Assembly: GCA_963697755.1 (NCBI GenBank)
Contig: CAVOPE010000014.1
Location: 107,817-171,816 of the forward strand
Length of the DNA: 64,000 nucleotides
DNA from: an uncultured Gemmatimonadales bacterium
GTDB lineage: Bacteria; Gemmatimonadota; Gemmatimonadetes; Gemmatimonadales; GWC2-71-9
Direction of reading: 5' to 3'
The notes beneath the pieces are model-generated. The model had not been told where the DNA came from, searched no databases, and saw only the letters and a program-made list of their open reading frames with translations. The first letter of the stretch is position 1. Each line of letters starts with the position of its first letter. Shown here in pieces: positions 3,587 to 45,831 of the stretch. A program made the translations under genes and the position numbers.

Positions 3587-3607
3587 GGCTCTCTCCTTCA
3601 GATGGAT

Positions 3608-3637: not shown

Positions 3638-3674
3638 CGTCTTGGCCGTGCCGGAGGGCGTCGGCCAAAAGGTT

Positions 3675-3690: not shown

Positions 3691-3816
3691 ATATGGCAAG
3701 AGGTCGCCGCTTGCGCCAGACCCCCTAGTTTGGGGTGGCGTCCCGAACCGCGCAATTCCTCGCAGGCCCGGGTCCCGCTTAGATTTGGGCGACCCGAGCC
3801 CTGACCCCCGAGAGCC

Positions 3817-4878: not shown

Positions 4879-4898
4879 CGGTGGTCAACGGAAGCGCC

Positions 4899-7209: not shown

Positions 7210-7249
7210 CCTCCTCGTCACCGGCGGAGCCGGCTTCATCGGCGCGAAC
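7202..7249 (+). pseudogene. 16-codon N-terminal stub of a lost dTDP-glucose 4,6-dehydratase gene
   Basis: GTG at 7202 overlaps the rmlD stop (GTGGCTAA) and reads VANLLVTGGAGFIGAN, then unrelated LKPACCRALFEG-stop. The intact rmlB 150 nt downstream starts MRSLLVTGGAGFIGAN, with different (less GC-rich) synonymous positions. Confidence 0.7.
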
Positions 7250-7351
7250 TTGAAGCCCGCGTGCTGCAGGGCTTTATTTGAGGGCTAGGGTGCAATTCAA
7301 CTCCTCCTCGCTGCCAGCGAAGGACCGACGCGCGATCCATGCCTCACTGCC

Positions 7352-8461: not shown

Positions 8462-8464
8462 GCG

Positions 8465-11804: not shown

Positions 11805-12044
11805 TTCCGCCAGTGCGGGCATGATGGAGCGCCGCGTGGAGCGCTGTTCGAGTGGTTCAGACGGCAGCCCGGTCCTGAGGGCGACGAGAGCTCCCATGGG
11901 GGCCGGCTCGCTGAAGGACGCCGCGGATGTCCGGGAGCGACGCACTCGCTACTTCAGCACGAGGGACAAGCGATCGTGCCAGGTGCAGCCGCCCAGCTTC
12001 TGATTCGAAGTCGGTCACGAGCGTTGTATGGTTTTCTCGAGCGG

Positions 12045-12782: not shown

Positions 12783-12947
12783 CCTGAGGCTGCTTGTCAA
12801 TTGCGGCACACTCGGAGGACGTGTGTCGCATTCCGGGTCGCTTGGAAGCCCATTTTGCCCCTAGCGGGGGCCGAATCTCACCGTAGCATCCAAAGCATGC
12901 CAGGTCCCCTGGAAGGCATCTCCGGCTGTGACGCAGGAGCTACGCGC

Positions 12948-12971
12948 GAAGTCACTATAGAAGTCACTATA
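12948..12971. repeat. perfect tandem duplication of a 12-mer (GAAGTCACTATA x2)
   Basis: Read directly: gcGAAGTCACTATAGAAGTCACTATAacgg, 42 nt upstream of the GTG (13013) of the TolB-like gene, in an AT-richer intergenic region. Confidence 0.9.
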
Positions 12972-13012
12972 ACGGACCTTGCCGCTGGTCGAGGCGAGGA
13001 AGAGGCATCGGC

Positions 13013-14098
13013 GTGGGATCACTGCCATTGAGGCTCGAGGAGCTTGTTAAGACTCGCATTGCGGAGGTCGCCGCCACCCTCCTCGGTATCCTCGCGTTGA
13101 CCGCTTGCGGCGCTGAGACAGGTCCGCCCGAGCCCCTCCCCAAACCCGACATCCTCGACAACCAGATCGTGTTCGCGTCCGATCGCGGCGGACACAAAGA
13201 GATCTACGTCACGAATCCCGACGGATCCGGCGTCATCAAGCTGTTGGACAGCCCCACCGGCGACCTCAATCCGGTGCCGTCGCCGGACGGGACCCGAGTC
13301 GCCTTCTTCCGTCATGTCGACACCGTCATCCTCCTGCAGATCATGAACACCGACGGTAGCAACCTGATCAGCACCTACTTTCGGACAGACGACGCCACCT
13401 GGTCGCCCGACGGCTCCCGGCTGGCGATGCTGGTAACCGATGCTCGCGGGATTTGGTTCACACCCAAAGTCGTCGATCGGACGGGCTCCGTGGTGTCCGC
13501 GCTCGATCTCTCTGCCTGCGGCGGCACCAGTCCGTCCTGGTCACCCGAGGGGTCCCGCTTGGCATACGTGCTTTGCCCCTCTGGCGCGGTTTACGTGCGT
13601 GACGTCGCCGCCGGCACCACAACCACGCCTGTGCCCGATTCCGAGATTGACGATGACGCCTATCTTCCCGCCTGGTCGCCTGACGGGGCGGCGATCGCCT
13701 TCGCAATCCGCGTCGACGACCCGGACCGGACTGGCATTTTCGTGGTCGGGCCGGACGGAAGTGGCCTCACCAGACTGGCGCCCGACTCCGCGGTCCGGAC
13801 GCTGCGATGGTCCCCAGACGGCTCCAAACTGGCGTTCGTCTCGGGTGCCGGCGGGGACAACGAGGTGTATGTGATAAACCCCGACGGGGCAGGACGGTTG
13901 AACCTCACGCAGAATCCCGCTGACGACAGTCACGTGACCTGGGCCCCGAGCGGCACCCGACTGGCATTCCAGAGCGACCGCACTGGCAATCGCGAGATCT
14001 TCGAGATGGATGTCGACGGCACGCACGTGGCCAACCTCACCAATAGCCCGGCGGACGATGCCGAGCTGGCCTGGAGTTCGGCCAGGGTCGCCCCATAG
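13013..14098 (+). CDS. TolB-like beta-propeller lipoprotein (PD40/WD40-like repeats)
   Basis: ORF 13013..14098. Lipobox-like LALTAC. Repeated SPDG/WSPDG blades (VPSPDGTRVAF, TWSPDGSRLAM, SWSPEGSRLAY, AWSPDGAAIAF, RWSPDGSKLAF, TWAPSGTRLAF) with IYV..PDGSG linkers. Confidence 0.8.
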   Translation: MGSLPLRLEELVKTRIAEVAATLLGILALTACGAETGPPEPLPKPDILDNQIVFASDRGGHKEIYVTNPDGSGVIKLLDSPTGDLNPVPSPDGTRVAFFRHVDTVILLQIMNTDGSNLISTYFRTDDATWSPDGSRLAMLVTDARGIWFTPKVVDRTGSVVSALDLSACGGTSPSWSPEGSRLAYVLCPSGAVYVRDVAAGTTTTPVPDSEIDDDAYLPAWSPDGAAIAFAIRVDDPDRTGIFVVGPDGSGLTRLAPDSAVRTLRWSPDGSKLAFVSGAGGDNEVYVINPDGAGRLNLTQNPADDSHVTWAPSGTRLAFQSDRTGNREIFEMDVDGTHVANLTNSPADDAELAWSSARVAP

Positions 14099-14104
14099 CG
14101 GAGC

Positions 14105-15745
14105 ATGAACGCGGACGGTCCTGGCGCTGCCGCGGGCGCTGGCGCGCAGGACCGGACCAAGGTTGTTTTCAGCGCGTCGCGGAGGCCGGCGACACCACTG
14201 ACCAGGGGGCATGTGCAACATTTTTTCGACTGGGCCAGGGGAGCCGTTCGGAGCGAGGAACCCTGGCTGATTCTCGGTAAAGGACCGAGCTTTTCGCAGC
14301 GCGATCTTTACGACCTCTCGGGCTACCGACTGTTGAGCCTGAACCACGTCGTGCGCGAGCTGCCGGTCGCGCTGGCGCACATGATCGATCTGGATGTCGC
14401 GGACGCGTGCGCCGAGGCGCTGGGCGAGAACGCCGAGTTCTTGGTGATGCCGTGGTATCCGCATGTCAGGAACCGCGCTGGCAGCGAGAGCCTGGCGGAG
14501 CTGGTCCCGAAGTTCCCCGGCCTCCGGCGTCTGGAGGCCGAGGGCCGGCTCCTATGGTATGACCTGAGCACGTCACCGGTCCGCCACGGCCCGGGCCCGG
14601 TTGTGCAGGCGACCTATTTTAGCGCCGAGGCGGCGCTGAGCCTCCTGGCTTTGGCCGGGGCCCGGCGGGTCCGCTCGCTCGGCGTGGACGGGGGTAACGC
14701 ATACAGCCAAGCGTTCGACGACCTCAAGGACAAAACGCTGCTGGCCAACGGCCGGCCGAACTTCAACCTGCAGTTCAAGGGACTGGCCAGGACCATCATG
14801 AGCACAGGTGTGGACTACGCTCCGCTCGACGTCGAGAGCCCGATTCGAGTGTACGTCGGCAGCCAGGAAGCCCAGATGCTGCCGGTGAAAGTGCTCGAAT
14901 ACTCGATCCGCAAGCACGCCAGCATGACGGTCGAGGTCTTTCCGCTGCATCAGGCCCACGTCGACTTCTCGATGCCCGCCGCGGTCGAGAACCGTCCGCG
15001 CACGCCGTTCTCATTCCAGCGGTTCTACATCCCGCAGCTCGCCGGATTTCGCGGGCGGGCGATCTACGTCGACTCGGACATGCAGGTCTTTCAGGACATC
15101 CGGAAGCTGTGGACGCTGCCGTTCGAGGGAGCCGACCTCCTGGCCGCGCGCGAAGCGGGCGAGAGCGGCCGTAAACCGCAGTTCAGCGTCATGCTGCTCG
15201 ATTGCGCGGCCCTCCGGTGGGATCTGAACGACATCGTAGCGCGGCTGGATCGCGGCGAGCTGACCTACGAGACCCTCATGTACGAGATGAAGGTCGCTCG
15301 GAGCATCCGGGCGGGCATCGACCCGACCTGGAACTCGCTTGAGCGCTATGAGGATGGCCGCACGGCCCTCCTTCATTACACCGACATGATGACACAGCCC
15401 TGGATCTCCCAGAACAATCCCCTGGGGTATCTCTGGGTGCGTGACCTGATCGGGGCGGTCGATGCGGGCGCAATCACCCGCGCCTTCGTCGAGGAGCACG
15501 TGCGCGAGGGCAACGTCCGCCCCACGCTGCTCTATCAGCTGGACCACCGGGTGGAAGAGACGGCACTCCTGCCCAAGGTCGCCCGAGAGCTCGACGACGC
15601 GTTCGTCCCTCCCTACCGGAAGATGGGGGCGCATGCCGGCACCCGACTGGGGCGCCTGGGACGCGTGCGCGCCATCCTGCGGCACGTCTACCAGCGGAGC
15701 CCACTCTTCCGCATCGAGCGAAAGCTGCGAGCGCCGGACAATTGA
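14105..15745 (+). CDS. two-domain protein: N-terminal DUF115/MptE-like domain fused to a C-terminal GT8 glycosyltransferase
   Basis: ORF 14105..15745. The C-terminal half has a GT8 look (IRVYVGSQEAQMLPVKVLEYSI, FSFQRFYIPQLAGFRGRAIYVDSDMQVFQDIRKLW with a DxD, and LHYTDMMTQPW). The N-terminal about 230 aa has LILGKGPSF ... HMIDLD ... SLGVDGGNAY, a pattern I associate with DUF115/Maf-type domains. That assignment is from memory only. Confidence 0.7.
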   Translation: MNADGPGAAAGAGAQDRTKVVFSASRRPATPLTRGHVQHFFDWARGAVRSEEPWLILGKGPSFSQRDLYDLSGYRLLSLNHVVRELPVALAHMIDLDVADACAEALGENAEFLVMPWYPHVRNRAGSESLAELVPKFPGLRRLEAEGRLLWYDLSTSPVRHGPGPVVQATYFSAEAALSLLALAGARRVRSLGVDGGNAYSQAFDDLKDKTLLANGRPNFNLQFKGLARTIMSTGVDYAPLDVESPIRVYVGSQEAQMLPVKVLEYSIRKHASMTVEVFPLHQAHVDFSMPAAVENRPRTPFSFQRFYIPQLAGFRGRAIYVDSDMQVFQDIRKLWTLPFEGADLLAAREAGESGRKPQFSVMLLDCAALRWDLNDIVARLDRGELTYETLMYEMKVARSIRAGIDPTWNSLERYEDGRTALLHYTDMMTQPWISQNNPLGYLWVRDLIGAVDAGAITRAFVEEHVREGNVRPTLLYQLDHRVEETALLPKVARELDDAFVPPYRKMGAHAGTRLGRLGRVRAILRHVYQRSPLFRIERKLRAPDN

Positions 15746-25072: not shown

Positions 25073-26985
25073 ATGTCTCCACACCAGCCCCTCCCACCCC
25101 GTCCACAGATCCGGAACCGATACCTCTTTGCGTCGGACGTGTGTCTTTTCGTCTCAGCCACGATCCTCGCGTACGCCCTTCGGTTCGAAGGATTCGAGTG
25201 GGGCCCGGAACAACAGCAGGCGGCGGTCGTCTATCTCCTCGTCTCCCTCCCCATCAAGCTGTACGTCGCGTGGTGGGTCGGCATCTATCGCCGGCTGTGG
25301 CGCTACGCCGGGATCATCGAGGTTGAGCGGCTGATCTCGTCGGCGGCCATTTCCGGGCTGGCATGCCTGGTCCTGGGCGGCCTGGTCCTCCCGATTCTGG
25401 GTGTCACCGCCGTGCGAGTGCCGCTGTCGGTCCTGTTCATGGACGGGCTGCTGACCGCGGTCTTCGCGGCGCTGCCCCGGCTGGGTGTCGCGCCTTCGGG
25501 CGGCGGACAGCAGCGCCGCCGGGTCGACAGCGACCGGGTGATCATCGTGGGTGCCGGGGCCGCCGGTGAACTGATCGGGAAAGAACTGCTGGGCCATCCA
25601 CAGCTCGGGCTCCAGCCGATCGGCTTCGTGGATGACGACCCCTCGAAGCACGGACACCGCATGCTGGACCTGCCGGTGCTCGGTGCCCTCAAGGACCTGA
25701 CCGGTCGTCATCGACGAACTGGCGCGCACGAGGTGATCATCGCGATGCCGCGCGCGCCGGGAAAGGCGGTGCGCGCAGGTCGTGGATGCGGCGCACTGCG
25801 GCCGGCGCGCGCGCGCGCACGGTGCCAGGCATGTTCGACATTCTTTCGGGCCGCGTCTCGGTTACGGCGCTGCGCGAGGTCCAGATCGAGGACCTGCTGC
25901 GGCGCGAGCCGATCATCACCGACCTGGCCCAGGTGCGAGAGCTGGCGACCGGCGAGACCGTGCTGGTGACCGGCGCAGGCGGCTCGATCGGCAGCGAGTT
26001 CTGCCGGCAGCTCGCCCGGCTGGAGCCGGCCCGCATCATCATGCTGGGCCACGGCGAGAACTCGATCTTCGACATCCTAGCACGAGCTGGTCCGGCTCGT
26101 TCCCAATGTCACCGCGTGCCCGTCATCGCCGACGTGCGTGACCGCGAGCGGCTGCAGCACGTGTTCGAGTCATTACCGCCCGTACGCGGTCTTCCACGCC
26201 GCCGCCCACAAGCACGTGCCCGCTCATGGAAGACGAACATCGCCGAGGCCGTGACGAACAACGTCCTGGGCACCCGCAACGTCGCCGAGCTGTCGGCCGA
26301 GTATCGGCGTCAAGCACTTCGTGCTGATCTCGACCGACAAGGCCGTGCGGCCCACCAACGTGATGGGCGCCACCAAGCGGGTGGCCGAGCAGATCGTGCA
26401 GCGAGATCGCGGAGGCGCAGAGCGGAAGAACTTCGTCGCGGTGCGGTTCGGCAACGTGCTCGGCAGCCGGGGCAGCGTGGTGCCGACGTTCCTGCGCCAG
26501 ATCCGCGAGCGGCGGCCCGGTCACGGTCACCCACCCCGAGATGCGGCGCTACTTCATGACGATCCCGGAGGCGGTCCAGCTGGTGCTGCAGGCCGGCGCG
26601 CTCGGGCGAGGGCGGCGAGGTGTTCGTCCTCGACATGGGCGAGCCGCTCAAGATCGTCGACCTGGCGACCGACCTGATCCGGCTGTCGGGCCTCGAGGTC
26701 GGCGACATCGAGATCCGGTTCAGCGGGACGCGGCCGGGCGAAAAGCTGTACGAGGAGCTGTTCTTCGACTCGGAGAATGCCGTGCCCACCGACCATCCGA
26801 AGGTGCTGCGGGCGCGGAACGGCACCTTGCCCATCGGACTGAGCACCGGGGTCGATGCGCTGGTGGAGGGCGCGCGCAGCGGGAGGCCGGACGACGAGAT
26901 CCGCAGTCTGCTCGTGCGACTCGTCCCCGACTTCCGGCTGTCCGAGCACACCGCCGCGGAAGTGCTGGACCTCGCCCAGAGCTGA
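25073..26985 (+). pseudogene. membrane-bound nucleotide-sugar 4,6-dehydratase, CapD/PglF/WbpM family; about 10 frame changes as sequenced
   Basis: N-terminal TM domain in ORF 25073..25969. The catalytic domain is then spread over all three frames. Segments in order: QVVDAAHCG, RTVPGMFDILSGRVSVTALREVQIEDLLRREPI...VLVTGAGGSIGSEFCRQL...GHGENSIFDI, HELVRLVPNVTA, VPVIADVRDRERLQHVFE and YRPYAVFHAAAHKHVP. The remainder are [52 protein letters not shown]...[48 protein letters not shown] and [19 protein letters not shown]... to the stop at 26985. Confidence 0.85.
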
Positions 26986-27006
26986 CGCGGCCTCGCCCGC
27001 TAGGCG

Positions 27007-29622
27007 CTAGCGCCGCGCCACCACGATGATGGTGGCCAGCACGCCGATCACCTGGGCGATGGTGCTGATGACTCCGGTGGCGTTGCTCGACGGCTCCTGC
27101 TCGGTCCGCGTGGCCACGAACACAACCGCTCCGGGCAGGGGCCGCGGCACCTGGTCCGGGATGAGCGTCCGCCGTTTCACTCCCTGTCGCACGCCGTTCG
27201 GCTGCGTCACGTACGGATGGCGCGTGTCGCCCCGCTGGGTATATCCCCCCGCAGCATCCACATACCAGTCGAGGTTTCGGCCCGGCGTGTAGGCCACCGG
27301 CCCCGGAGAATTGACGGCGCCCTGGACCATCACGATGGGATTGAACTCGGGGATGACGATCGAGTCGCCGCCGACCAGAATGACGTTGTCGCGGTACTTG
27401 GGATCCTTAAGTACGCGAGGCAGGTTGATGCCGACCCGCTCCGGCAGCCCTGGCCTGGTGGAGTCCCGCGTGGCGCCGTTCGCCGAGGGCACCAGTGACA
27501 GCCGATCGGTTCCGGTGGGTCGCGTTCCCGCATACGAACGATAGAACTCGATGCCCCCGGGGTAGGCCTCGGCCGTCAGGCCACCGGCGCGCGCGATCAG
27601 ATCCGCCAAGCGCTCCGTCTTGGAGCGGAGCGAGTAGCGTCCCGGCGACTTGACCTGTCCGCTGACGACCACGGTGCGCTGCAGGGACCAGCCGCCCTGG
27701 CGGAGCACCAGCACGTTGTCGTAGGGCGCGAGCGGTGCATCAGCCGGCGACGCCGCGCCGGTCGCGGCATGCCCCGCCACGAAGCTCGAATCGAGCGGCA
27801 CGCGCACGGTCTCCGCCAGGGAGCCGACCGGGCGATCGGCGGGGAGGCGCGCGATCTCGGTCTCGAGCTGCGCGTCGTCCGTCAGGCCGTCGGCCAGGAG
27901 AATGACGTCCCGAACGGTCATACCCTCACGGTAGGCCACGCGGCCCGGCCGCCGCACCCCGCCGACGATGGCGACGTACTTCTCGACCCGGAACGTGGTC
28001 CGCGAGAAGATCCGGACCTCATCCTCGTCCTGCAGCGTCAGGTCCTCGCGCAGCGCGCCGGTCGAATCGGTGAAGGCCGAGCGCAGCTGGATGAAGCTGG
28101 AATCCTCGCGCATGCGGGTGACCAGAATGCGGTCGAGGTACACGTCCGGCTTGGGCCCCCCGGCCAGGCGGATGGCGTCGCTCAGCTTCATTCCCGGCGT
28201 GAAGCCCACTTCTCCCTCGACCCAGACGTTACCGCGCACCGTCACGTAGCCACGCTGCCGTGTGGCGACGGGGTGGACCGTGACCGAGTCCCCGGGCGCC
28301 ATCGGCACGGCGGGGGCCACTCCGCCGCTGAACTGATCGGCGCCGACGGCGATGACGATCCGCGCCCGGCCGCCCGCGCCGCGCGATTCCGGCGGCAGAA
28401 TCCGATGGATGGTGACGCGCGCCTCGACGGCGGAGGGATCGAAGCCGCCGGCGAAGGCGATGGCGTCGCGGAGCGTCTCGCCCGGACGCACCTCGTAGAT
28501 CGCCGGCCGGAGCACCTTGCCCGCCACGGCGGCGAATCCGCCGTGCACCGGCACGAACACGACGTCACCGGTCTGCAGCCGGATGTTCGTCGGGTTCTTC
28601 CCGCTGGTGAGGTAGTCGTAGAGGTCGAGGCTGTCGACCAGAGCCGTGCCGCGCCGGATCATCACCCGCCGGAAGGTGCCGTTGGCCGTCGGACCCCCGG
28701 CGGCGTACAGGGCGGTGAGGACGGTGCCGGCGCCCGAGATCTGGTAGGCGCCGGGGCGCACGACGTCGCCCGCGACATAGACCTGGATGTTCCGGAGCTT
28801 GGCCAGCGAGAGCTGGAAGCGCGTGGTTCCGGCTCCGTTGCTCCGAACGCCGGAGTAGACCCTTGCGAGCCGGCCGGACAGCTGCTTCTGCACCTCGGCG
28901 AGCGTCAGGTTGGCGACATACACCTGGCCCACCTGGGGAATCACCACGAATCCCTCGCGGGTGACCTCGAGGGTGTACGACCGCTCGACGTCGCCGGTCA
29001 GGATCAGGACGAGGACGTCCCCGGGCCCGAGCCGGTAATTCTCGTCCACCGGGCCCGTCTGCGCGGCCTGAAACCGGGTCGACGCGCGGCGGAAGGTCTC
29101 CAGACCGAACACCTTGAGCCCACCGCGGAGCACGGTGAGCGTGTCCGCCAGGGAATCGGTGCGAAGGGAATCGGCGCGGACCTGCTGAATCGAGTCCAGG
29201 AGCGCGCGCAGCGAATCAGAGCTGACCTTGACCGAGTCCGCGAGCCTGAGTGAATCGGCCTCCTCATCGCTCAACACCCCCAGGGCTCGCACCGCGTCCA
29301 GCGTGCGCGGCCCATACGGCGCCGGGAGCGTGGTGTCGGCGCCTTGGACATAGCTGTCGAGCAGGTTGTCGGGGTAGCCGGCGGCGCGAAGGCGCGAGCG
29401 CACCTGGTCGGGGGTCATTCCCGACTGCTGGATGCGCTGGCGGAGCTGTTCGATGAGCTGCGGCTGGTTCCGGAGGAGGTCCTGCGCCTGCTCCGGCGAG
29501 GGGGGTTGCTGGCCTGCGCCGGGAATCTGGGCCAACGCCGGCGTCGCGAACGCGAGCAGGATGACGGCCAGGCCGAGCCACGCCCTGCGGGGCAGGGACC
29601 TACGCGAGACCGAGTTGGGCAT
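27007..29622 (-). CDS. large polysaccharide export protein (Wza/OPX family with multiple SLBB-like modules)
   Basis: ORF 27007..29622(-), 871 aa. Signal peptide [32 protein letters not shown]. Repeated export/SLBB-like modules ([62 protein letters not shown]). C-terminal hydrophobic helix [22 protein letters not shown]. Confidence 0.8.
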
Positions 29623-29655
29623 GGGGGGCGAAGATCGCTCGTAAGTAAGGCGAAG

Positions 29656-30767
29656 TCAAGCGGTTGCGCGCAGGAGGTCGTGCCAGAATGCAAGCGTTCG
29701 GTCGGCGATCGCCGCGTCAGTATACCGCTCCATCACGCGGCGCCGGCCGGCCGCGCCCAGACGCCGGACCTCCTCCGGCTGATCGTGCAGGCGCTGCAGC
29801 GCGTCGGCGAGGGCCCCCACGTCCTCTTCGGGCACCACCAGGCCGGCGTCGCCGAGCGACTCCGGGATGGCCCCCGCGGCGCTTCCCACCACCGCGATCC
29901 CGTGGGCCATCGCCTCCAGCCGGCGCGGGGCGCCACCTCGATCCAGCGCGGGGTCGTGCGCGACGGTAGCACCACGACATCGAGCCGCGGCCAGACCTCA
30001 TCCACCGCGCTCCGAGGCAAGGCGCCGCGCCAAGTCACCCGGCCGGCAATGCCAAGACGTTCCGCCAGGCCCTCCAGCTCTTCCTGGGCCGGACCGGTGC
30101 CGACCACCGTGAGCGTCCACCGGCCCACCAACTTCACCGCAGCCCGGAACAGGAGGTCGAGGCCCTTCTCCGGAATCAGCCGGCCAACGAATCCCAGGCT
30201 GAGGCCGGGATGGCCCGGTCGGTCAGGCGCGAGTGGGAGCGCGACGCCGAGCTGGGGAATTGTGCGATGGGGCAGGGATGGATGGCCGCGCAGCGCAAGG
30301 CGCCCGGCGAACTCGTTCACCGAGATGACCCCTGCCGCCCCGGCCAGGGCGCGGTTCCGCCGCAGCCTCGTGAGCGTGCCTCGGCTCACCGGCAGGCTCT
30401 CGCGGGTGACGAGCACGTACGGGATCTTGAGCCGCCGTGCCGTCCGCGCGATCGCCGCGGCGCCGTTGCTCCACGGCTCTTCCTCGAGCTGCACCACGTC
30501 GGGCCGGAAGTCGGTGAGCAATCCGCGGATGGTGCCGCCATGCCAGAACGGATCGGCCGCAGGGAGCGCGCTCCCGCGAATCGGGATGGGTACGGTGCGG
30601 ACTCCGCCGTCGTCCCCCCAGCTCGTCTGCTGCTGCCGCTCCAGTCCTGCGGGCACCCAGCGATCGGGCACCGCGGCGGCCACGGTCACGCCCAGGCCGG
30701 CGAGGGCGCGGAGCTTGCCTCTCGCGGCGGGGTCCGCGTAGACGCGGGAGATCACCAGTGCGCGCAC
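29656..30767 (-). CDS. GT4-family glycosyltransferase; one frameshift near 29920 as sequenced
   Basis: ORF 29733..30767(-) gives the N-terminal three quarters (MRALVISRVY..., LGFVGRLIPEKGLDLLF, VVVLPSR). The C-terminal EAMAHGIAVVGSAAGAIPESLGDAGLVVPEED... lies in ORF 29656..29910(-). The join needs a 1-nt correction around 29920-29922. Confidence 0.8.
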
Positions 30768-30860
30768 GCCCCCAATCTCACCTCACATCGCGTCAGGACC
30801 AAGGGTGGTTGCGCGGTTGACTTCGGTCGCCGGTCTAGGCCAACTTGGCGACACACCATC

Positions 30861-31940
30861 ATGCGCATCCTCCATCTCGCGAAGTACTACTGGCCGCGCT
30901 CCGGCGGCATGGAACGGGTGGTCCAAGGTCTCGCCGAAGGCGCCGCGAACCTGGGTCATCAGGTCCAGGTCGTCGCGGTCGAGAGCCGCGGCAAGGCGGG
31001 GAGCGCGGGCCGGGCGCGGATGGGCGTCACCCGCGCGTTCTCGTTCGCGGCGCTGGGCTCGCAGGAGATCGCGCCCGGGTACATCGCCGCGGTCTGGAAA
31101 CGCGCCGACATCATTCACGTCCATCATCCACACCCGCTCGCCGACGTCGCCTGCTTGCTGCGGGCCGGCGGGACGCCGGTGGTGGTCACCCAGCACGCGG
31201 ACTCGCGCCGGTCGATGTACCGGCCCGTGACCGGTCTCGTGCTGCGGCGCGCCGCGGCGGTCGTGGTGCCGAGCCGGGCCCACCTGGCGCTGTCCACGGA
31301 ACTGGAGGGATGGGAGAGCAAGGTCGAGGTCATTCCGTTCGGCATCGACCAGACCCGGTGGGAAACCGTGCCGCCTCCGCCGCCCGGGGCGACGCCCCGG
31401 GCCATCTTCATCGGTCGGCTGGTGGCCTACAAAGGCCTCGACATCCTGCTGCGCGCGCTCGAGCGGGTCCCGGAGCTCCGGCTGGACATCGTCGGGGCGG
31501 GTCCCGAGGGACCGCGGCTGCGGACGCTGGCGCAGGCCTTGGCCGTCACGGACCGGGTGCGGTGGTACGGGGAGTATCCGGACGAGGATCTGCCGCGCCG
31601 CATGGCCGACGCCGATTTCCTGGTGCTGCCGTCGGTGACGGTCGAAGAGATGTTCGGGCTGGTGGTCCTCGAGGCGATGGCCGCGGGTCGGCCGGTGATC
31701 ACCACGGCGCTTCCCAGCGCGGTCCGGGAGGTGAACGTTCCCGGCGTCACCGGCCTCGAGGTGCCGCTGCGCGATGTGCCGGCGTTGGCCTACGCGCTCG
31801 AGGCCATGAGCCGCGACCCCGCCCGTCGGCGGACCATGGGCGAGGCGGGGCGGCGGCGGGTGGCCGAGCGGTTCACCCAGTCCATGATGGCGGAGCGGCA
31901 CGTGGAGCTGTACGAGAAGATTCGCGCGTTGCGCGTGTAA
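30861..31940 (+). CDS. GT4-family glycosyltransferase
   Basis: Within ORF 30210..31940; ATG 30861 (MRILHLAKYYWPRSGGMERVV). Motifs FIGRLVAYKGLDILL, FLVLPSVTVEEMFGLVVLEAMAAGRPVITT. Divergent from the previous GT4. Confidence 0.88.
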   Translation: MRILHLAKYYWPRSGGMERVVQGLAEGAANLGHQVQVVAVESRGKAGSAGRARMGVTRAFSFAALGSQEIAPGYIAAVWKRADIIHVHHPHPLADVACLLRAGGTPVVVTQHADSRRSMYRPVTGLVLRRAAAVVVPSRAHLALSTELEGWESKVEVIPFGIDQTRWETVPPPPPGATPRAIFIGRLVAYKGLDILLRALERVPELRLDIVGAGPEGPRLRTLAQALAVTDRVRWYGEYPDEDLPRRMADADFLVLPSVTVEEMFGLVVLEAMAAGRPVITTALPSAVREVNVPGVTGLEVPLRDVPALAYALEAMSRDPARRRTMGEAGRRRVAERFTQSMMAERHVELYEKIRALRV

Positions 31941-33107: not shown

Positions 33108-36100
33108 CTACCGGGCGGGCGCCAGCGCCTCGAGCCGCTGCCGCACGACGCCCACCGCGGCCTCGGCACCCAACCCCTCGAGCAGCCGCACTGCCTCGGC
33201 TACGAGAGCCGGCGTGTCGGCCTCCGCGAGTGCCAGCGCCTGCTCGTGCGGGCAGCCGAGCCGTGCCCATTCCTCCGCCGCGCCGACGGCGTCGCCCCGG
33301 AGCTCCAGGAGGCAGGCGCCCGGGATGTCTTCCGGCACCCGGGGAAGCGCGCCGGCGCGATGCAGCCACACCGCCAGGCAACCGCGGATCCAGGGGCTGT
33401 TCCTGGTCAGCGACAACTCGTAGACGGCCCGGGCCTCCATTGCCATCTCCGCCGGCCGGCGGGCCAGCCACGCTGCCTCGGCCCGGGCCAGCGCCACCGG
33501 TCCGAGCCGCTGCAGCTCCGCCGTGCTCTCCGCCAGCGTGTGCGCCTCGTCGAGCAGCTCGCTGACGCCGGCTTGGCCGCAGCGGGCGCGAAACAGCCCC
33601 AGCACGACCAGCGCGTGGATCCTCGCCGGAGCGAAGAGCTTGGTCTGCTCCAGCAGCTCGGCCGCCTCGAGGCGGGCCTCTTCCCAGGCCCCGGTGTCGA
33701 GGTGGAGCTGCGCTCGCCACGCGCGCATATACGCGGTCCAGAAATCGAGGTCCCGTGCCTCAGTGTACTCCAGCCCTTCGCGCAGGTAATGCTCGGCCTC
33801 CTGATACCTCCGGTCCGCCACGAAGCTGGTGAAGTTGGCATAACACCGGGACACGTGCTCCTGGTAGCTGCCCTCGCGCGCAAGGCGAAGCGCACGGGTG
33901 AGCTTGGGGTAGCCTTCGTCCGGCCGCGACCGGATCTCGGCGCTCCCGACGTTGGTGAGCGCATGCACCAGGGTCTCGCTGTCGCCGAGGCGCTCGGCGA
34001 GCGCGATGGCCTTGTCGCCCCAGGTCACCGCTCCCTCTGTCTCGCCGGCGAGCATGTGGAGCTGGGACAGGTTGCTGTACGCCATCGCCAGCTCCGGGCC
34101 GAGACCGAGCGGCTCGAGGACCGCGATTGCCTCCCCCGCGTAGCCCTCCGCGTCCGCCCGTCGGCCCCCAGACCAGGCCAGGCGCGAGAGCCATCGCAGC
34201 GCGGCGCCCTCCCGCCGGCGATCGCCGAGACGCCGCCAGGTTTCCAGCGCCTCCTCCCGCGCGGCGAACGCCTCGGCCATGCGGCCGATCAGGTAGTCCT
34301 CATAGGACCGGCCTTCCAGCAGCGTCGCCCGCTCGTCCGGCGCCAACCCTTCGGCGGAGCGCAGTCCCACGCTGTAGTGCGCCGAGGCCTCGCGATGGGC
34401 GCCGAGCGCGGAGGCTTGCGAGGCGGCCAGGGGAACCCAGCGTTGGACCGACTCGGTGTCGCCGGCGCCTTCCGCATGATGCACCAGTCTGGCCGGCGCG
34501 ACAGGTGACGCGGCCGTCTCGAGCGCTGCGAACACGCGCGCGTGCAACCCGCGCCGCCGGCTAGAGACGAGGCTCTCCTCGACCGCGCGCCGCGCGAGCT
34601 CGTGGCGAAAGCCGACGCCCTGCTGGTCGCTGGTCAGCATGCCCGCGGAGAAGCATTCCTCCACCGCCGCCGAGTCGCGACCGAAGAGCCGCTCCACCAG
34701 CCAGGACTCGGCCTTTCCCGGAATCACCGAGACGACCTCCATGGCCGCGCGCGCCTCGGGCGAAGCGCGCGACGCCCGGCCCAGCACCGCGTCCCGCACC
34801 GTCGCGGGGATGCCCGACTGGTAGCTGGCGAGGACCTCGGAGAGGTAGAAGGGGTTCCCGCCGGTCGCCGCGTGGAGCCCGCGATGGCCGCGTCCAGCAC
34901 GGCGGGCGAGCGTCGCGACGGCCGACTCGGAGAGCGGACGCAGCTCGAGGCGGCGCACCGCGCCGCGCGGGAGATCGCCGAGCACCGATCGCAGCGGATG
35001 GGCGGGGCCGATCTCGTCATCCCTCACGGTCACGATCACCAGCAGTGGGAGCCGGTGCGCCCGCCGCCCCAGGAACTTGAGGAGGTCGAGCGTCGCTCCG
35101 TCGGCCCAGTGCACGTCCTCCAGCACGAGCACGGTCGGCGTGCGGCCGAGCCCGAGCTCATCGAGGAGCGTACCAAAGATCGCTTCGCGGCTGGACGCGT
35201 TCCGGAGCGCCGCGTCGAGCGCGCCGCCGAGCTGGGCGGCGATGTCGTACAGCGGGCCGAGCGGGCGCGGGGTGAACAACGCCTCGCACCAGCCCCAGAG
35301 CAGGCGGACGGAGCGCTGCCCGCGGGTGAACTCCTCCACCAGCGAGGTCTTGCCGATGCCCGCCTCCCCGGAGACCAGGACGAGCGCGCCGCTGCCGGCG
35401 ACCGCCGCCACCAGGAGACGCTCGAGCTCGTCCAGGAACTCCTCCCGCTCGACCAGCGCCGTCTCCCGGGTTGCGGGCTGCGGCAGGGCACTCTGCGCGG
35501 CGGTCACGCCGGTCGCGGCGATCGGTTCCGCGAGCGCCTGGGCGAGCTCGGCCGCGCCTGCGAAGCGGTCGACGGGGTCACGGGCCAATGCCCGTCTGAC
35601 CGCGGTCTCCAGCCAAGGCGGGACGTCCGCGCGCAGTGGCCGCAGCTCCGGCGGCGCTTCCACCAGGCGGCGGGACATCAGGGCCATCGCAGTCCGACCG
35701 GTGAAGGGTGTCTGCCCGGCGAGCATCTCGAAGAGCACGCACCCGAGCGCGTACACGTCCGAACGCCCGTCCACCGGCTCGCCGGCGACCTGCTCGGGGC
35801 TCATGTATGCCGGGCTGCCAACCGCGGTGCCGGCGACGGTCAGCGCCGCGTCGAGCGGTCCGACCACCCGGGCGACTCCGAAGTCCGCGACCAGGGCATG
35901 GCCGCCGGACAGGAGTATGTTCTCCGGCTTGATGTCGCGGTGCACCACGCGGTGCGCATGGGCGTACGCCAAGGCGTCGGCGATCTCCCGGGCGAGACCG
36001 ATGGCCTCCGCCAACGGAAGCGCCCCCTCGCGCTCGAGCCGTCGGCGGAGCGACTCGCCGGCGACATACGGCATCGTGTACCAGGACTGGCCGGCGGTCC

Positions 36101-36368
36101 GACCCGAGTCGAAGACCGGGAGGATGTTCGGATGCTGCAGGGCTGCCGTCACCCGGATCTCGCGATGGAAGCGGTCGGCTCCACCGGCGCTGTCGGCGGT
36201 CGGGAGGATGACCTTGAGCGCGACGGGCCGCTCGTGTCTGAGGTCGCGGGCGAGGTACACGATCGCCATGCCGCCATGTCCGAGCTCGCGCTCGAATCGG
36301 TAGCGGTCACGCAGCGCGTCGGCGAGCGCTGCGGGTAGGTCCGGCGCGGTCGGCAGATCGGAAGGCAC
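33108..36368 (-). CDS. Ser/Thr protein kinase fused to an AAA/STAND-type ATPase and a long TPR-like region
   Basis: ORF 33108..36368(-), 1086 aa, GTG start. Kinase motifs GHGGMAIVYLARD, VALKVI, HRDIKPENILL, DFGVAR, SPAYMSPEQ. P-loop LVLVSGEAGIGKTSLVEEF and Walker-B-like VLVLEDVHWAD. The C-terminal about 450 aa is helical repeats (AMAYSNLSQLHMLAGE..., YANFTSFVADRRYQEAEHYLREGLEY...). Confidence 0.9.
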   Translation of the reverse strand: MPSDLPTAPDLPAALADALRDRYRFERELGHGGMAIVYLARDLRHERPVALKVILPTADSAGGADRFHREIRVTAALQHPNILPVFDSGRTAGQSWYTMPYVAGESLRRRLEREGALPLAEAIGLAREIADALAYAHAHRVVHRDIKPENILLSGGHALVADFGVARVVGPLDAALTVAGTAVGSPAYMSPEQVAGEPVDGRSDVYALGCVLFEMLAGQTPFTGRTAMALMSRRLVEAPPELRPLRADVPPWLETAVRRALARDPVDRFAGAAELAQALAEPIAATGVTAAQSALPQPATRETALVEREEFLDELERLLVAAVAGSGALVLVSGEAGIGKTSLVEEFTRGQRSVRLLWGWCEALFTPRPLGPLYDIAAQLGGALDAALRNASSREAIFGTLLDELGLGRTPTVLVLEDVHWADGATLDLLKFLGRRAHRLPLLVIVTVRDDEIGPAHPLRSVLGDLPRGAVRRLELRPLSESAVATLARRAGRGHRGLHAATGGNPFYLSEVLASYQSGIPATVRDAVLGRASRASPEARAAMEVVSVIPGKAESWLVERLFGRDSAAVEECFSAGMLTSDQQGVGFRHELARRAVEESLVSSRRRGLHARVFAALETAASPVAPARLVHHAEGAGDTESVQRWVPLAASQASALGAHREASAHYSVGLRSAEGLAPDERATLLEGRSYEDYLIGRMAEAFAAREEALETWRRLGDRRREGAALRWLSRLAWSGGRRADAEGYAGEAIAVLEPLGLGPELAMAYSNLSQLHMLAGETEGAVTWGDKAIALAERLGDSETLVHALTNVGSAEIRSRPDEGYPKLTRALRLAREGSYQEHVSRCYANFTSFVADRRYQEAEHYLREGLEYTEARDLDFWTAYMRAWRAQLHLDTGAWEEARLEAAELLEQTKLFAPARIHALVVLGLFRARCGQAGVSELLDEAHTLAESTAELQRLGPVALARAEAAWLARRPAEMAMEARAVYELSLTRNSPWIRGCLAVWLHRAGALPRVPEDIPGACLLELRGDAVGAAEEWARLGCPHEQALALAEADTPALVAEAVRLLEGLGAEAAVGVVRQRLEALAPAR

Positions 36369-36534
36369 GTCGCAATCTCACGCAGTGGCCGGGCCGTCGC
36401 CAGCGCAGCGGAGGCTCGCCGAAGGCTGTGAAGGGCGATGTTCAGAGGAGGGTGATGCGGAGCCGGCTCTCTGAGGCGTCGGCGGCTGGGGATCCTGTCG
36501 CTCGAACGCGGAGTGTAGATTCTGGTGGCTTGTC

Positions 36535-36580
36535 GGGCCCTTAGCTCAGGTGGTTAGAGCAGCGGACTCATAACCGTTGG
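36535..36580 (+). pseudogene. 5' fragment (46 nt) of a tRNA with CAT anticodon
   Basis: GGGCCCTTAGCTCAGGTGGTTAGAGCAGCGGACTCATAACCGTTGG matches the first about 47 nt of the intact tRNA at 37611. Differences are 2 D-loop substitutions (GT vs TC), a missing T after the anticodon loop and one C/T change. No T-arm or 3' acceptor follows (cgccggtgagcg...). Confidence 0.75.
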
Positions 36581-37610
36581 CGCCGGTGAGCGCTGCCTTT
36601 ACCGAAGTGTGGGGGTACTGCAACCTCAGGTACCGCTCCGCTCCGTCAATCCATTGCAACCGTGGTGGCCGAAATTTATCCCTATTGCCTGTGAGCAATT
36701 TGCCAGAGTGGAGCGGATTGATTGAAGCAAGTCCTCAGTGGACTTGGCGCGACGGTCGGCTCGTGCATGTCGAGGCCACTTTCACGAGTGAGCCGCCTGC
36801 CGCTCTCTCCCTGCTGCGCCATTTCGTCGTCCGTCATTGCTACGCCAAACATAATGACTCCGCCAAAGTCCTTCGTACGATCGCGGGTCTGTTGGCGGAC
36901 ATAAAAACGGGGGATTGGGGCCTGAACCTCGGTGCCGGCACGACGACGCTTCATCCCCAGATTCTCAACCTCGACATCAGCACAGCTCCTTCCGTGCATA
37001 TCGTTGCGCACGATCAAAAGCTTCCCTTCCAGGACAACTCCCTCAAACTGGTGATCTCGCAGGAAGTGCTGGAGCACTTGCCCGATCCTGCTTTCACCGT
37101 CCGCGAGGTTCTACGCGTCCTGCAAGTCGGCGGGAAGTTCTACTGCCAGGTTCCTTTCATCATCGGATATCATCCGGGCCCTAACGATTATTGGCGCTTT
37201 ACCAAAGAAGGTATGGCCCAACTTTTTGTCGATCCGGCCTGGCAGATGTTGAACCTGGACACGTCAGTCGGACATGGCACGGGCGCGTATCGTATCGCGG
37301 TCGAATGTGTCGCCGTTACAGCCAGCCTTGTGAGCAATGCGTTGTACATCCCTGCGAAAGGCTGCGCTTCCCTGGCTTTGGCTCCTATTAAACTCCTCGA
37401 TTTTGTCTCGGATCGTTCTGTGCAAAAACATCGAATTCCTGGCGGGTATTTTTGCGTTGTACAGAAGCTGGCGACATGACCTCCGTACGGCTCGTCTCCA
37501 GTTGGCGTCTAGTGCAATCAGGGAAACACGACAGCGTCAGATGTCCAGGGGCACGCTTTCCTCTATCCTGACGCTTTCGGTTAGATTGTAGTTGCGCCGT
37601 AAGCTATGAC
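36581..37610 (+). other. about 1-kb lower-GC islet between the tRNA fragment and the intact tRNA (possible remnant of an integrated element)
   Basis: Hand counts on several 60-nt lines give roughly 48-63% G+C here, against about 70% in flanking lines. It contains one methyltransferase ORF and no integrase. Confidence 0.5.
36691..37479 (+). CDS. class I SAM-dependent methyltransferase (Methyltransf_11-like)
   Basis: Within ORF 36577..37479, whose 5' end starts inside the tRNA fragment. GTG 36691 or TTG 36685 are plausible starts. Motif I GLNLGAGTT, LKLVISQEVLEHLPDP, LRVLQVGGKFYCQVP. Codon usage is visibly less GC-biased than in neighbours. Confidence 0.7.
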   Translation: MSNLPEWSGLIEASPQWTWRDGRLVHVEATFTSEPPAALSLLRHFVVRHCYAKHNDSAKVLRTIAGLLADIKTGDWGLNLGAGTTTLHPQILNLDISTAPSVHIVAHDQKLPFQDNSLKLVISQEVLEHLPDPAFTVREVLRVLQVGGKFYCQVPFIIGYHPGPNDYWRFTKEGMAQLFVDPAWQMLNLDTSVGHGTGAYRIAVECVAVTASLVSNALYIPAKGCASLALAPIKLLDFVSDRSVQKHRIPGGYFCVVQKLAT

Positions 37611-37684
37611 GGGCCCTTAGCTCAGTCGGTTAGAGCAGCGGACTCATAATCCGTCGGTCCCTGGTTCGAATCCAGGAGGGCCCA
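37611..37684 (+). tRNA. tRNA with CAT anticodon (ileX-type tRNA-Ile2-like; elongator Met not excluded)
   Basis: 74-nt cloverleaf folded by hand. Acceptor GGGCCCT/AGGGCCC, D-arm GCTC-AGTCGGTTA-GAGC, anticodon arm GCGGA-CTCATAA-TCCGT, variable CGGTC, T-arm CCTGG-TTCGAAT-CCAGG, discriminator A, no encoded CCA. Overall sequence resembles E. coli ileX from memory. Confidence 0.9.
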
Positions 37685-37709
37685 TGCGGCACGGATCCGT
37701 CCTGCTTCG

Positions 37710-38696
37710 CTACTCCCTCGCCCCCTCCTCCCGCGCCGATAGCTCCGGTGCGTGGTGGTCCAGCGCTCCGACCGCGTGACCGCGCTGCTTGCGCGCGATG
37801 GCGGGAAAGCCGTGCTTCCGCCGAACCAGCATCCAGAGGATCGGCGCGATGAGCAGCACCAACAGCAGGATGATTCCCGTCTGCTGGTTGGAGAAGTTGA
37901 GCAACTTGAGGGCCGAGGCGAGCAGCACGAAGGCCAAGGCACGACGAACCAGTCCGCCCGGCGCCCGCGCCGAGAGGTGCGCCCCGACCCACACGCCAGG
38001 GATGCAGCCGATCAGCAGCGAGGTGGTCAGATCCATGTGGAAGTCGCCGAACAGGATGTGACCCAGGGCAGCGGACGCGACCAAGGGGACCGCCTGGACC
38101 AGATCGGTGCCCACCAGCTCGCTGGCTTTGAGCGTCGGGTAGAGGGCCATCAGTGCGATGATGATGAGCGAGCCCGAGCCGACCGACGTGAGCCCGACGA
38201 CGATCCCGCCCAGCGCGCCCAGCACCACCGTCGGCAGGACCCGTACGTTGATCGTCGGTCGTCCTTGCGGCAGGGGGTCCGCCCGGCCGTCGCGCCGGCG
38301 CGCACGCTCGGTGAGCCGGATGTACGCCCGAACGGTCAGGCCGGCGGCGGCGAGCAGGAGTGCCGCGCCCAGCGCCAAGCGAATCACATCCTGCACCGCC
38401 TGGCCACGCCCGAGCGCCCGTGCGATCAGCACGCCACTGAACGCCCCCGGGATGGATCCGAGGCACAGCCATTTCACCAGGCCGAGATGGACCGTACCCC
38501 GTCGCAAGTGCACGATGGAGCCTACGGGCTTCATGACGGCGCTGGCGACGAGGTCCGAAGAGACGGCGGTGAGCGGAGGGATGTTGAAGAACAGCACCAG
38601 AACAGGGGTCATCAGCGCGCCGCCGCCCATCCCGGTAAGCCCGACGACGATGCCGATGCCGAAGGACGCGATGGCGAGCAGCGGATCGATGGTCAT
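37710..38696 (-). CDS. TauE/SafE (DUF81) family anion exporter
   Basis: Within ORF 37710..38912(-); ATG 38696 (MTIDPLLAIASFGIGIVVGLTGMGGGALMTPVLV). Two-fold repeated 4-TM architecture with a second VGLTSVGSGSLII motif. Confidence 0.85.
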   Translation of the reverse strand: MTIDPLLAIASFGIGIVVGLTGMGGGALMTPVLVLFFNIPPLTAVSSDLVASAVMKPVGSIVHLRRGTVHLGLVKWLCLGSIPGAFSGVLIARALGRGQAVQDVIRLALGAALLLAAAGLTVRAYIRLTERARRRDGRADPLPQGRPTINVRVLPTVVLGALGGIVVGLTSVGSGSLIIIALMALYPTLKASELVGTDLVQAVPLVASAALGHILFGDFHMDLTTSLLIGCIPGVWVGAHLSARAPGGLVRRALAFVLLASALKLLNFSNQQTGIILLLVLLIAPILWMLVRRKHGFPAIARKQRGHAVGALDHHAPELSAREEGARE

Positions 38697-38898: not shown

Positions 38899-39660
38899 AT
38901 GTTTCCGCTCAAATTCCGATTCGGACTGGCCGTTGTCCTGGCCGCCCTGGTCTCTGTCCTCTTCGTCCTTCACGGTTGCCAGGAGCCGCCGGAGGTCAGT
39001 GAGCCCTCCGCGGCCGTGGCCGCGGCCGCGACCGACGTTCCCTGACCATCACCGGCACCGGCACCGGCTCCGGCATCGGCGCCGTGACCTCCAGCCCGGC
39101 GGGCATCAACTGCACCATCACCGCAGGGCGGACGAGTCCTCGCCGGTGCGCTACGCTGAGCTGTGGAACCCGACCACGGAGACCTGGTCCACGCTCGCGA
39201 TCGAGGCCGAGGGACGGATGTATCACTCGACCTCGATCCTGCTGCCCGACGGCCGCGTGATGTCGAGCGGGAGCGGCGACGGCAACGGGGCCGTCAACCA
39301 CCGCACGGCGCAGATCTTCACGCCGCCGTATCTGTTCCGGCCGGACGGCACCCTCGCCGATCGACCGCAGATCACCACCGCGCCCTCCTCCCTCTCCTAT
39401 GGCCAGACGTTCGCCGTCGAGACGCCCGACTCGGGCTCGATCGTCCGCGGGACCCTGATCCGGCTCTCTTCCGTGACGCACGCCTTCAACGAGAGCCAGC
39501 TGATCTATCCGCTGACCTTCACGGCGACCGGACCGACGACCCTCTCGACGACCGCGCCGCCGGACGGCAACCTCGCACCCCCCGGTCCGTACATGATCTT
39601 CCTGATCGACGCCAACGGCGTGCCCTCGGTCGGACGCATGGTGAGCGTCGGGCCGTCGCC
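38899..39660 (+). pseudogene. decayed lipoprotein gene: signal peptide + partial InlB-B-repeat-like module + C-terminal part of a galactose/glyoxal-oxidase-like protein (DUF1929 region)
   Basis: ATG 38899 gives MFPLKFRFGLAVVLAALVSVLFVLHGC (lipobox), then a stop at 39043-39045. The next frame reads LTITGTGTGSGIGAVTSSPAGINCTITAG. The third frame (ORF 38933..39991) reads AELWNPTTETWSTLAIEAEGRMYHSTSILLPDGRVMSSGSGDG...TAQIFTPPYLF...LIRLSSVTHAFNESQ...APPGPYMIFLIDANGVPSVGRMVSV. Most of the expected Kelch propeller is absent. No stop follows the homology; the end given is approximate. Confidence 0.55.
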
Positions 39661-45757: not shown

Positions 45758-45831
45758 GGGCGATTAGCTCAGCCGGTTAGAGCGCGCGCCTCACATGCGC
45801 GAGGTCGGGGGTTCGAGCCCCTCATCGCCCA
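45758..45831 (+). tRNA. tRNA-Val (CAC)
   Basis: 74-nt cloverleaf by hand. Acceptor GGGCGAT/ATCGCCC, D-arm GCTC-AGCCGGTTA-GAGC, anticodon arm CGCGC-CTCACAT-GCGCG (anticodon CAC), variable AGGTC, T-arm GGGGG-TTCGAGC-CCCTC, discriminator A. Confidence 0.92.

Follow-up and report, generated by a model that had tools for sequence, protein, structure and literature searches.

In the genome of an uncultured Gemmatimonadales bacterium from soil, a tRNA gene with anticodon CAT is preceded by a partial copy of its own 5′ part, and the roughly 1 kb of DNA between the two copies encodes a single methyltransferase. We analysed this islet within a stretch of 64,000 nucleotides (nt) of contig CAVOPE010000014.1 (hereafter the window, with positions counted from its first letter). 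The islet is probably an integrase-less, non-autonomous remnant or cassette that stems from a foreign circle inserted at a tRNA-Ile2(CAU) hotspot. A sequence-only reading had already offered the pair of an eroded integrative element or a minimal cargo cassette, and this pair fits the composition of the islet, the polarity of the repeat, the different inserts in related genomes, and the absent integrase.

An intact tRNA(CAT) and its 5′ fragment

ARAGORN and Rfam both recognised an intact 74-nt tRNA(CAT) at 37611-37684 on the plus strand (Rfam score 74.4 bits), as the sequence-only reading had expected; ARAGORN called only one other tRNA in the 64-kb window. A repeat finder paired 36531-36573 with 37607-37649 (43 nt, 93% identity), and blastn-short aligned 36535-36573 with tRNA positions 1-39 (E = 1.8e-12), the only two mismatches lying in the D loop (GT vs TC). 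Beyond tRNA position 39, one T is missing from the left copy, which then has CCGT unchanged, T in place of C, and GG; its similarity to the tRNA is imperfect after 36573 and unrecognisable by about 36586. The 5′ copy of about 47 nt with four small differences, reaching to about 36580, which the sequence-only reading had described, is reproduced by this alignment. Both copies are on the plus strand, the 5′ fragment lying 1076 nt upstream of the tRNA, a spacing that agrees with the tiny insert claimed before. Furthermore, blastn-short found no other fragment of tRNA(CAT) in the 64 kb, and Rfam at a relaxed E-value made no truncated-tRNA call for the fragment and no call of a riboswitch or small RNA.

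The D loop of the left fragment is GGTGG, as in the tRNA of the syntenic relatives L317 and L006, a metagenome-assembled genome (MAG), while that of the intact window tRNA is GTCGG. The DNA upstream is rich in guanine plus cytosine (GC) at the fragment and low in GC at the intact tRNA. A weak similarity is present upstream of both copies, namely ATCCTGnCGCT and a TGTAG inside a TAGATT-like box. A TAGATT, TAGGTT or TAAGTT box near the tRNA start also precedes copies in L317, L081 (its third copy) and L297; the box may act as the native tRNA promoter. A scan of the locus for sigma-70 promoters and intrinsic terminators found none. The decay of the left fragment differs between contigs of the same species, T39 being absent in the window and in L082, and G10C being found instead in L081.

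ARAGORN gives the label Met to any tRNA with a CAT anticodon. Judged by its sequence, the window tRNA appears to be of the tRNA-Ile2 type (CAU, lysidine) and not an elongator or initiator tRNA-Met; we treat it as tRNA-Ile2(CAU) because of its E. coli matches, a hint from plastids, and candidate TilS elements. The best E. coli matches are annotated as tRNA-Ile (85% over 74 nt), and the top match adjoins mug, which is the position of ileX. On the minus strand, the Rfam family 'Plastid-ycf2 5'UTR' matched 37611-37685 with 34 bits, under the gathering score and antisense of the tRNA. The plastid ycf2 leader adjoins plastid trnI-CAU, and we attribute this match to an overlap of the family with that gene rather than to a separate feature. 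Finally, the tRNA has C4-G69, C5-G68 and G27-U43, which we take to be TilS identity elements as in E. coli.

The islet is foreign DNA

The islet (36581-37610) has a GC content of 55.6%, the lowest in the window (z = -5.5), compared with 70.0 ± 2.6% (minimum 61.4%) in 1030-nt sliding windows elsewhere. GC at third codon positions (GC3) is 62% in the methyltransferase gene and 86.4 ± 3.5% (minimum 80.5%) in 41 likely genes of the window. Tetranucleotide distances are highest there too, the top four of the window all belonging to the islet, and the composition boundary coincides exactly with the fragment and the tRNA. These values substantiate the lower-GC stretch of about 1.03 kb that the sequence-only reading had estimated; native composition, which it had named as an argument against insertion, is seen in none of the three measures. 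The lone gene also held up, the methyltransferase (a Methyltransf_11 protein by Pfam) being the sole credible gene of the islet. Deviant composition and codon usage, together with the lack of the methyltransferase in the syntenic L006 and L317, are the marks of horizontal acquisition, and the islet is foreign DNA. A blastn search with the islet gave no match in plasmid and phage collections, and its right-end junction had no match in a metagenome scan. The RNA of fragment and leader folds no more stably than shuffled sequences (z = +1.4).

A local event without horizontal transfer, namely a partial tandem duplication of tRNA and promoter around a native gene of atypical composition, would account for the short motifs common to both upstream regions and for a left copy that decays like a pseudogene. 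We consider it very improbable, as the gene differs from its neighbours in GC3 (62% vs 86%), shows the strongest tetranucleotide deviation in the 64 kb, has its nearest homologues in contigs of lower GC, and is missing from syntenic L006 and L317. Besides, a tandem duplication would copy the intervening gene too.

A constrained methyltransferase with relatives in sugar operons

The class I S-adenosylmethionine (SAM)-dependent methyltransferase matched Methyltransf_11 with E = 1e-10 and 42.5 bits, against a gathering cutoff of 21.2. The public gene call (P0001) begins at TTG 36718 and yields 253 amino acids; we prefer the start at GTG 36691, because the lengths of the homologues (261-272 amino acids) and their N-terminus M..LP.W fit this start. 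The gene is intact: the GxGxG motif of the SAM-binding core (LNLGAGTT) and every family-invariant residue are conserved. Among the gene copies of the window and of the contigs L081, L082 and L083 there are 4 polymorphic sites, all in third positions; because all four are synonymous, the gene is taken to be under purifying selection.

Its nearest relatives are 77%, 67% and 59% identical and lie in contigs of 61% and 49% GC, in other contexts than this tRNA. The relatives are surrounded by surface-polysaccharide or amino-sugar operons, for instance in the order Bac_transf, methyltransferase, ATP-grasp, HAD, DegT and Polysacc_synt_2, or are accompanied by glycosyltransferase family 4 (GT4), Wzy_C or AsnB genes, and in none of the contexts examined is there a tRNA beside them. 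No NCBIfam model reached its cutoff for the protein, and its matches in the PDB span the SAM-binding motif only. Going by the gene context of the family, the protein is likely to be a glycan or sugar methyltransferase. A direct functional tie between the methyltransferase and the tRNA was considered and rejected, the conserved context of the family being sugar biosynthesis and not tRNA genes.

Different inserts at the same tRNA in related genomes

The islet is present in three metagenome contigs of the same species, L081, L082 (97.9% identity over 12.2 kb) and L083, and because these are independent assemblies, the structure is no assembly artefact. L081 has an extra 3.4-kb unit (10969-14362; GC 59-66%) at the place that corresponds to the junction of window positions 37684 and 37685, bounded by tRNA copies. 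It contains, in order, a gene for a YfhO-like membrane protein (882 amino acids), a degenerate full-length tRNA that ARAGORN reads as 'Ile gat', a TolB-like fragment of 112 amino acids and an intact tRNA(CAT); this third L081 copy has a different D arm. The intact window tRNA is identical to L081 copy 1 and its downstream flank is that of L081 copy 3, that is, the window equals L081 minus the extra unit. The two forms are related by recombination between tRNA copies with their last 45 nt in common, and both insertion and excision of a circle carrying a whole tRNA gene fit the difference.

Other relatives carry other DNA at this site. L006 is about 80% identical to the window and syntenic on both sides. 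Its 5′ fragment stops inside the anticodon loop, after CTCATA, and between this fragment and the intact tRNA lies a 7-kb chromate-type island (2904-9800; EamA, ChrB, DUF1259, DUF5916 and ChrA) with native-like GC and no integrase. L317, a metagenome contig, is syntenic via a GT4 gene (73% amino-acid identity) and a gene resembling galactose oxidase; here a degenerate tRNA copy is followed by one gene of 233 amino acids (ORF233) and then by the intact tRNA. In L317 as in L248, two tRNA(CAT) copies with a spacing of about 0.9 kb enclose a single co-oriented gene; in L248 (361-1361 in tRNA orientation) it is an unrelated Methyltransf_11 gene between a degenerate full-length and an intact copy, and its relative L275 has a WecG-like gene, the same methyltransferase gene and the tRNA without the extra copy. 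Hence three related genomes (the window, L006 and L317) have three different inserts at the same tRNA, and the tRNA-Ile2 site is an active, dynamic insertion hotspot. The presence of the same islet in all relatives, which would have spoken against the sequence-only reading, is not what we see, as L006 and L317 are without the methyltransferase.

In four full-length left copies (L081 10969, L081 13749, L248 and L317), the discriminator base is followed by CTT, and the right functional copies differ here; this may be chance or a junction signature.

One might see in these units a gene-capture platform, in which single-gene cassettes bracketed by tRNA-Ile2 copies are moved by a recombinase acting in trans and expressed from displaced promoters, much as in integrons. 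Five single-gene units are co-oriented with the tRNA (the window methyltransferase, the YfhO gene and the 112-amino-acid open reading frame (ORF) of L081, the L248 methyltransferase and L317 ORF233), an integrase is found in 0/5 of them, three stand in a row in the L081 array, and in four units the left copies are full length and then followed by CTT. Yet the units are few and partly from related genomes, a candidate recombinase is lacking, apart from the tRNA the units share no conserved motif at their ends, the co-orientation in 5/5 gives a p of about 0.03 only, and erosion of ordinary tRNA-locked islands yields the same picture. We thus judge the platform to be distinctly improbable, and give no better chance to its extension to Gemmatimonadales and other soil bacteria at large, where such cassettes would sit at the edges of surface-polysaccharide loci, form co-transcripts of mRNA and tRNA, and carry glycan-modifying cargo.

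Displaced 5′ fragments ending at the anticodon loop

The sequence-only reading had considered a duplicated 5′ half unusual. The layout as such stands, but it is not novel, since it belongs to a known minority type of island: the Islander collection has a 5′ fragment of the tRNA gene (tDNA) in 159 of 3919 islands, and 2083 anticodon-centred sites (PMC4383910). At tRNA-Ile2 the layout is frequent. A scan of IMG/VR with a 30-mer of the 5′ half retrieved six Moraxellaceae proviruses with two copies each. In all six (6/6), the second copy consists of tRNA positions 1-39, ends right after CTCATAAT, and lies upstream of the intact tRNA at a distance of 39-77 kb. The intact tRNA is preceded, at a distance of about 160 nt and in divergent orientation, by a gene with Phage_integrase and Arm-DNA-bind_3 domains; these integrases share 63% identity with the integrases of Moraxella phages Mcat4/6/8 and 36-50% with those of Acinetobacter phages.

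Likewise, when metagenomes were scanned with the first 39 nt of the tRNA, 11 of the 120 loci obtained were displaced fragments ending at position 38 or 39. These fragments come from soil metagenomes and have cargo of the mobile type as neighbours, namely a histidine kinase, a DDE transposase, a terminase and resolvase, or DUF4062. With a broader profile, confirmed by Pfam, we found co-oriented tyrosine integrase genes that end 33-57 nt upstream of the tRNA in L286/L319, L291 and L276. In L246, an integrase gene is directly upstream of a displaced fragment, and because of this adjacency we read the locus as a tandem arrangement. Elements equipped with the 5′ half of tRNA-Ile2, and with their crossover at the anticodon loop, are thus real and widespread. 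Two displaced fragments have odd junctions: in L303 (403-450) and L239 (1760-1810, in tRNA orientation), CTCATAA is joined straight to GGGCCCAC or GGGCCTCTTAGCC, which resemble a tRNA 3′ end or the beginning of another tRNA-like copy.

Weighing the origin of the islet

An integrase-free route deserves attention, in which a foreign chromosomal piece with the order methyltransferase-tRNA was inserted by RecA at the conserved tRNA homology, either through Campbell-type insertion of a circularised fragment or through homology-facilitated illegitimate recombination. Donors of this kind exist, and class I methyltransferases and glycosyltransferases often adjoin this tRNA upstream in soil bacteria: among 71 non-identical, phylogenetically non-independent metagenome loci (L206-L325), the gene immediately upstream is a class I methyltransferase in 8 and a TylF-type one in another, a WecG/TagA transferase in 5, and a GT4/GT1 transferase in 4. 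The weak similarity upstream of both copies and the failure to find either an integrase or arm-type repeats are in keeping with such a route, and plain homologous recombination between tRNA copies with 45 identical nt could explain the difference between L081 and the window. However, only about 40-74 nt of homology would have been available, which we consider short for efficient RecA recombination, and the methyltransferase family of the window was never found beside a tRNA. Moreover, identity stops precisely at the anticodon loop in L006, the 11 metagenome fragments and the six prophages, which argues for a fixed crossover site and against random homologous exchange. Overall, we regard the RecA route as unlikely.

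The remnant or cassette, in turn, has to face several observations that weigh against it. No exact empty site, with the kinase gene of the left flank, a single tRNA and the TauE gene of the right flank in this order, was found, and all contigs of the same species have the islet; a contig scan with TauE as query gave 80 loci, of which only L006 and L012 are syntenic and neither has this order, and exact look-ups of the window TauE and methyltransferase returned only the same two or three contigs. As the sequence-only reading had noted, an integrase is missing: the window, L081, L082 and L006 gave no match to a tyrosine recombinase with either a P4-like profile or one built by jackhmmer from three metagenome integrases, local profiles of few sequences whose coverage falls short of a full Pfam scan of every window gene, and tblastn of integrases against the islet revealed no remnant below E = 0.4. 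Nor does the islet contain an excisionase or an arm-type repeat, so that site-specific recombination is argued by analogy only; short repeats at the islet ends are in slight and unconvincing excess over shuffled sequences (9 vs 4.8 ± 2.5 for 7-mers, 3 vs 1.1 ± 1.3 for 8-mers). In the prophages and soil elements that have an integrase, it occupies the place next to the tRNA, whereas here it is the methyltransferase that does so, 131 nt from the tRNA, and because of this a simple parent with a terminal integrase does not fit unless a very precise deletion took place. In addition, the fragments of L006 and of the metagenomes end sharply, but here an imperfect similarity to the tRNA extends for about 13 nt beyond the anticodon loop, and for that reason the fragment may instead be a truncated full-length copy. 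Lastly, the four other integrase-less units (L006, L081, L248 and L317) suggest something beyond random erosion.

A model for insertion and persistence

For a remnant or cassette at the tRNA-Ile2 hotspot, which we continue to favour, we propose the following course of events. A small foreign circle would have carried a polysaccharide-type methyltransferase gene and an attachment region, the latter made up of a promoter-like segment and the first 40-50 nt or so of a tRNA-Ile2 gene. A crossover at or near the anticodon loop would have joined this circle to the resident tRNA gene. As the D loops differ, the crossover should lie 3′ of position 17, and as clean identity ends at the anticodon loop, it should lie at or before this loop. 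The resident promoter and 5′ half would thereby have been stranded on the left (36369-36586), followed by the inserted foreign DNA (36587-37610), and the functional tRNA (37611-37684) would be a hybrid of a foreign promoter and 5′ part with a resident 3′ part. For such a unit between direct repeats the polarity leaves no doubt: the DNA left of the fragment and that right of the crossover point in the intact tRNA are resident, and all that lies in between is insert (Table 1). Recombination was most likely carried out by a tyrosine integrase, provided either by a larger parent, from which it was later deleted, or in trans. Two histories may be imagined: a deletion removed the integrase of a parent but left its final ~130 nt in place, or an integrase was never part of the unit, which was then moved in trans or by homologous recombination.

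Thereafter, the stranded promoter would probably drive the methyltransferase gene in one transcript with the tRNA, because this gene is co-oriented, begins 118 nt past the clean fragment, and is preceded by no terminator or stable hairpin. At the same time, the right end of the islet would be locked in place and immune to ordinary deletion, because the functional tRNA depends on the promoter and 5′ half of the islet; the survival of so small a remnant would thereby be accounted for. tRNA-Ile2 is generally essential and encoded by a single gene, and the locking presumes this.

Table 1. Features of the islet and its flanks in the window, with origins as proposed by the model
Feature	Position	Strand	Basis and remarks
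Ser/Thr kinase-AAA_16 (STAND)-TPR gene, left flank, outside the islet	33108..36368	-	Pfam; absent from syntenic L317 and L006
Putative resident upstream region of the displaced tRNA copy	36369..36534	+	Between kinase start codon and fragment; GC 65-71%; TAGATT -10-like box at 36516-36521
Probable displaced 5′ fragment of the resident tRNA-Ile2(CAU)	36535..36586	+	Clean to 36573 (acceptor 5′ strand, D arm, anticodon stem/loop), degenerate from 36574 to ~36586
Left end of the islet, non-coding leader	36587..36690	+	GC about 57%; no Rfam family match
Class I SAM-dependent methyltransferase, 262 amino acids from GTG 36691	36691..37479	+	Pfam Methyltransf_11
Right end of the islet, putative replacement upstream region of the tRNA	37480..37610	+	GC 52%, composition continuous with the islet; TTAGATT at 37581-37587
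Intact tRNA-Ile2-type gene, anticodon CAT, CCA not encoded	37611..37684	+	Probable hybrid of islet 5′ part and resident 3′ part with downstream flank
TauE/SafE permease, right flank, convergent with the tRNA	37710..38696	-	Pfam; position varies among relatives

Comparison with known systems

The locus is a further case of the established 5′-fragment type of tDNA island, the mirror image of the usual 3′-fragment island. As in Islander islands (Hudson, Lau & Williams 2015, PMC4383910), an intact tRNA is preceded by a direct-repeat 5′ fragment that ends in the anticodon loop, DNA of foreign composition separates the copies, and tandem arrays occur at one tDNA. The rules of Islander ask for a full-length tDNA and a matching end fragment of equal orientation on one replicon, with a 5′ fragment upstream of the tDNA (a 3′ fragment downstream), a tyrosine integrase inside or overlapping, and a length of 2-200 kb (PMC4383910). 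The islet presents the pair of tDNA and fragment in the right configuration but differs in having no integrase and a length of 1.08 kb; it would be filtered out by Islander, because an integrase and at least 2 kb are required.

With the Moraxellaceae prophages, the locus has in common the tRNA species, the polarity of the 5′ fragment and the end of identity (CTCATAAT), and in both cases the element brings new upstream DNA and a new 5′ half. The prophages, in contrast, are 39-77 kb long, look functional and reside in low-GC gammaproteobacteria.

The islet is also comparable, by analogy, to a cis-mobilizable element (CIME), that is, an element flanked by attachment (att) sites that has lost its integration and transfer genes (PMC6323972). 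It shares with CIMEs the putative attL and attR, the lack of recombinase and transfer genes, and the tandem units at one site (in L081). It differs in that no parent integrative and conjugative element or prophage was identified, and in that the att core in the window has a 1-nt deletion (T39) by the anticodon loop.

Similarly, integron cassettes are ~1-kb single-gene units without their own recombinase, co-oriented with an upstream promoter and occurring in arrays, as here in L081; the bounding repeats of the islet are copies of a tRNA gene instead, no IntI was found, though no search aimed at IntI or attC was made, and we do not claim membership.

Serotype-converting prophage remnants, such as the gtr and oac modules of Shigella and Salmonella phages beside att at tRNA genes, offer a further parallel. 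They too combine cargo of the glycan-modification type with a tRNA attachment site and can survive in a cryptic state, while enzyme class, tRNA and phylum are different, and glycan methylation by the islet enzyme is suggested from gene context only.

The flanks and the wider neighbourhood

Pfam agrees with the flanks named by the sequence-only reading, with a Pkinase-AAA_16-TPR gene on one side and a TauE gene on the other. In the window, the kinase-STAND-TPR gene forms one uninterrupted ORF of 1086 amino acids; the gene calls of L082 and L081 break it into two or three pieces, and the split may reflect real frameshifts or assembly errors in those contigs. On the opposite side, the window TauE has 84% amino-acid identity to several Gemmatimonadales MAGs, which assigns the window to this order; outside Gemmatimonadales its best matches are from Actinomycetota (77% amino-acid identity). 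TauE is to the right of the tRNA in the window, but to the left of the tRNA fragment, directly beside the GT4 block, in L006 (10027-10923) and L012. The galactose-oxidase-like ORF at 39146-39592 corresponds only to the C-terminal E_set part of a 508-amino-acid Kelch gene, which in L317 (3451-4974) directly follows the tRNA; because only this C-terminal part remains after TauE, TauE seems to have replaced the 5′ part of the Kelch gene. Farther on, a tRNA-Val(CAC) gene (45758-45831) lies 8 kb downstream of tRNA(CAT), and the two are only 0.56-0.8 kb apart in L275 and L272.

On the kinase side, the window differs from L081 by 15-23% in a cluster for polysaccharide export and glycosyl transfer (26797-31300), and from ~31800 onward the two are 98-99% identical. 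By this pattern of divergence, recombination seems to have exchanged the cluster, which would be a surface-glycan locus that varies between strains. With such a strain-variable polysaccharide cluster nearby (~26.8-31.9 kb), the likely role of the methyltransferase is the methylation of a cell-surface glycan. Both the methyltransferase and the YfhO-like cargo fit a picture in which tRNA-Ile2 often marks the edge of variable glycan loci in soil bacteria.

Implications

Following from this analysis, integration on the 5′ side of tRNA-Ile2 is recurrent in the little-studied Gemmatimonadales. Island finders that demand an integrase and at least 2 kb would miss scars of this kind. The locus would show how far such an element can shrink and yet persist as an island, namely to a single cargo gene together with the promoter and 5′ half on which the tRNA of the host now relies. 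Even so reduced, the remnant still holds a gene that selection maintains and whose product probably modifies a surface glycan. If the cassette platform were true, it would amount to a new route of gene capture and expression.

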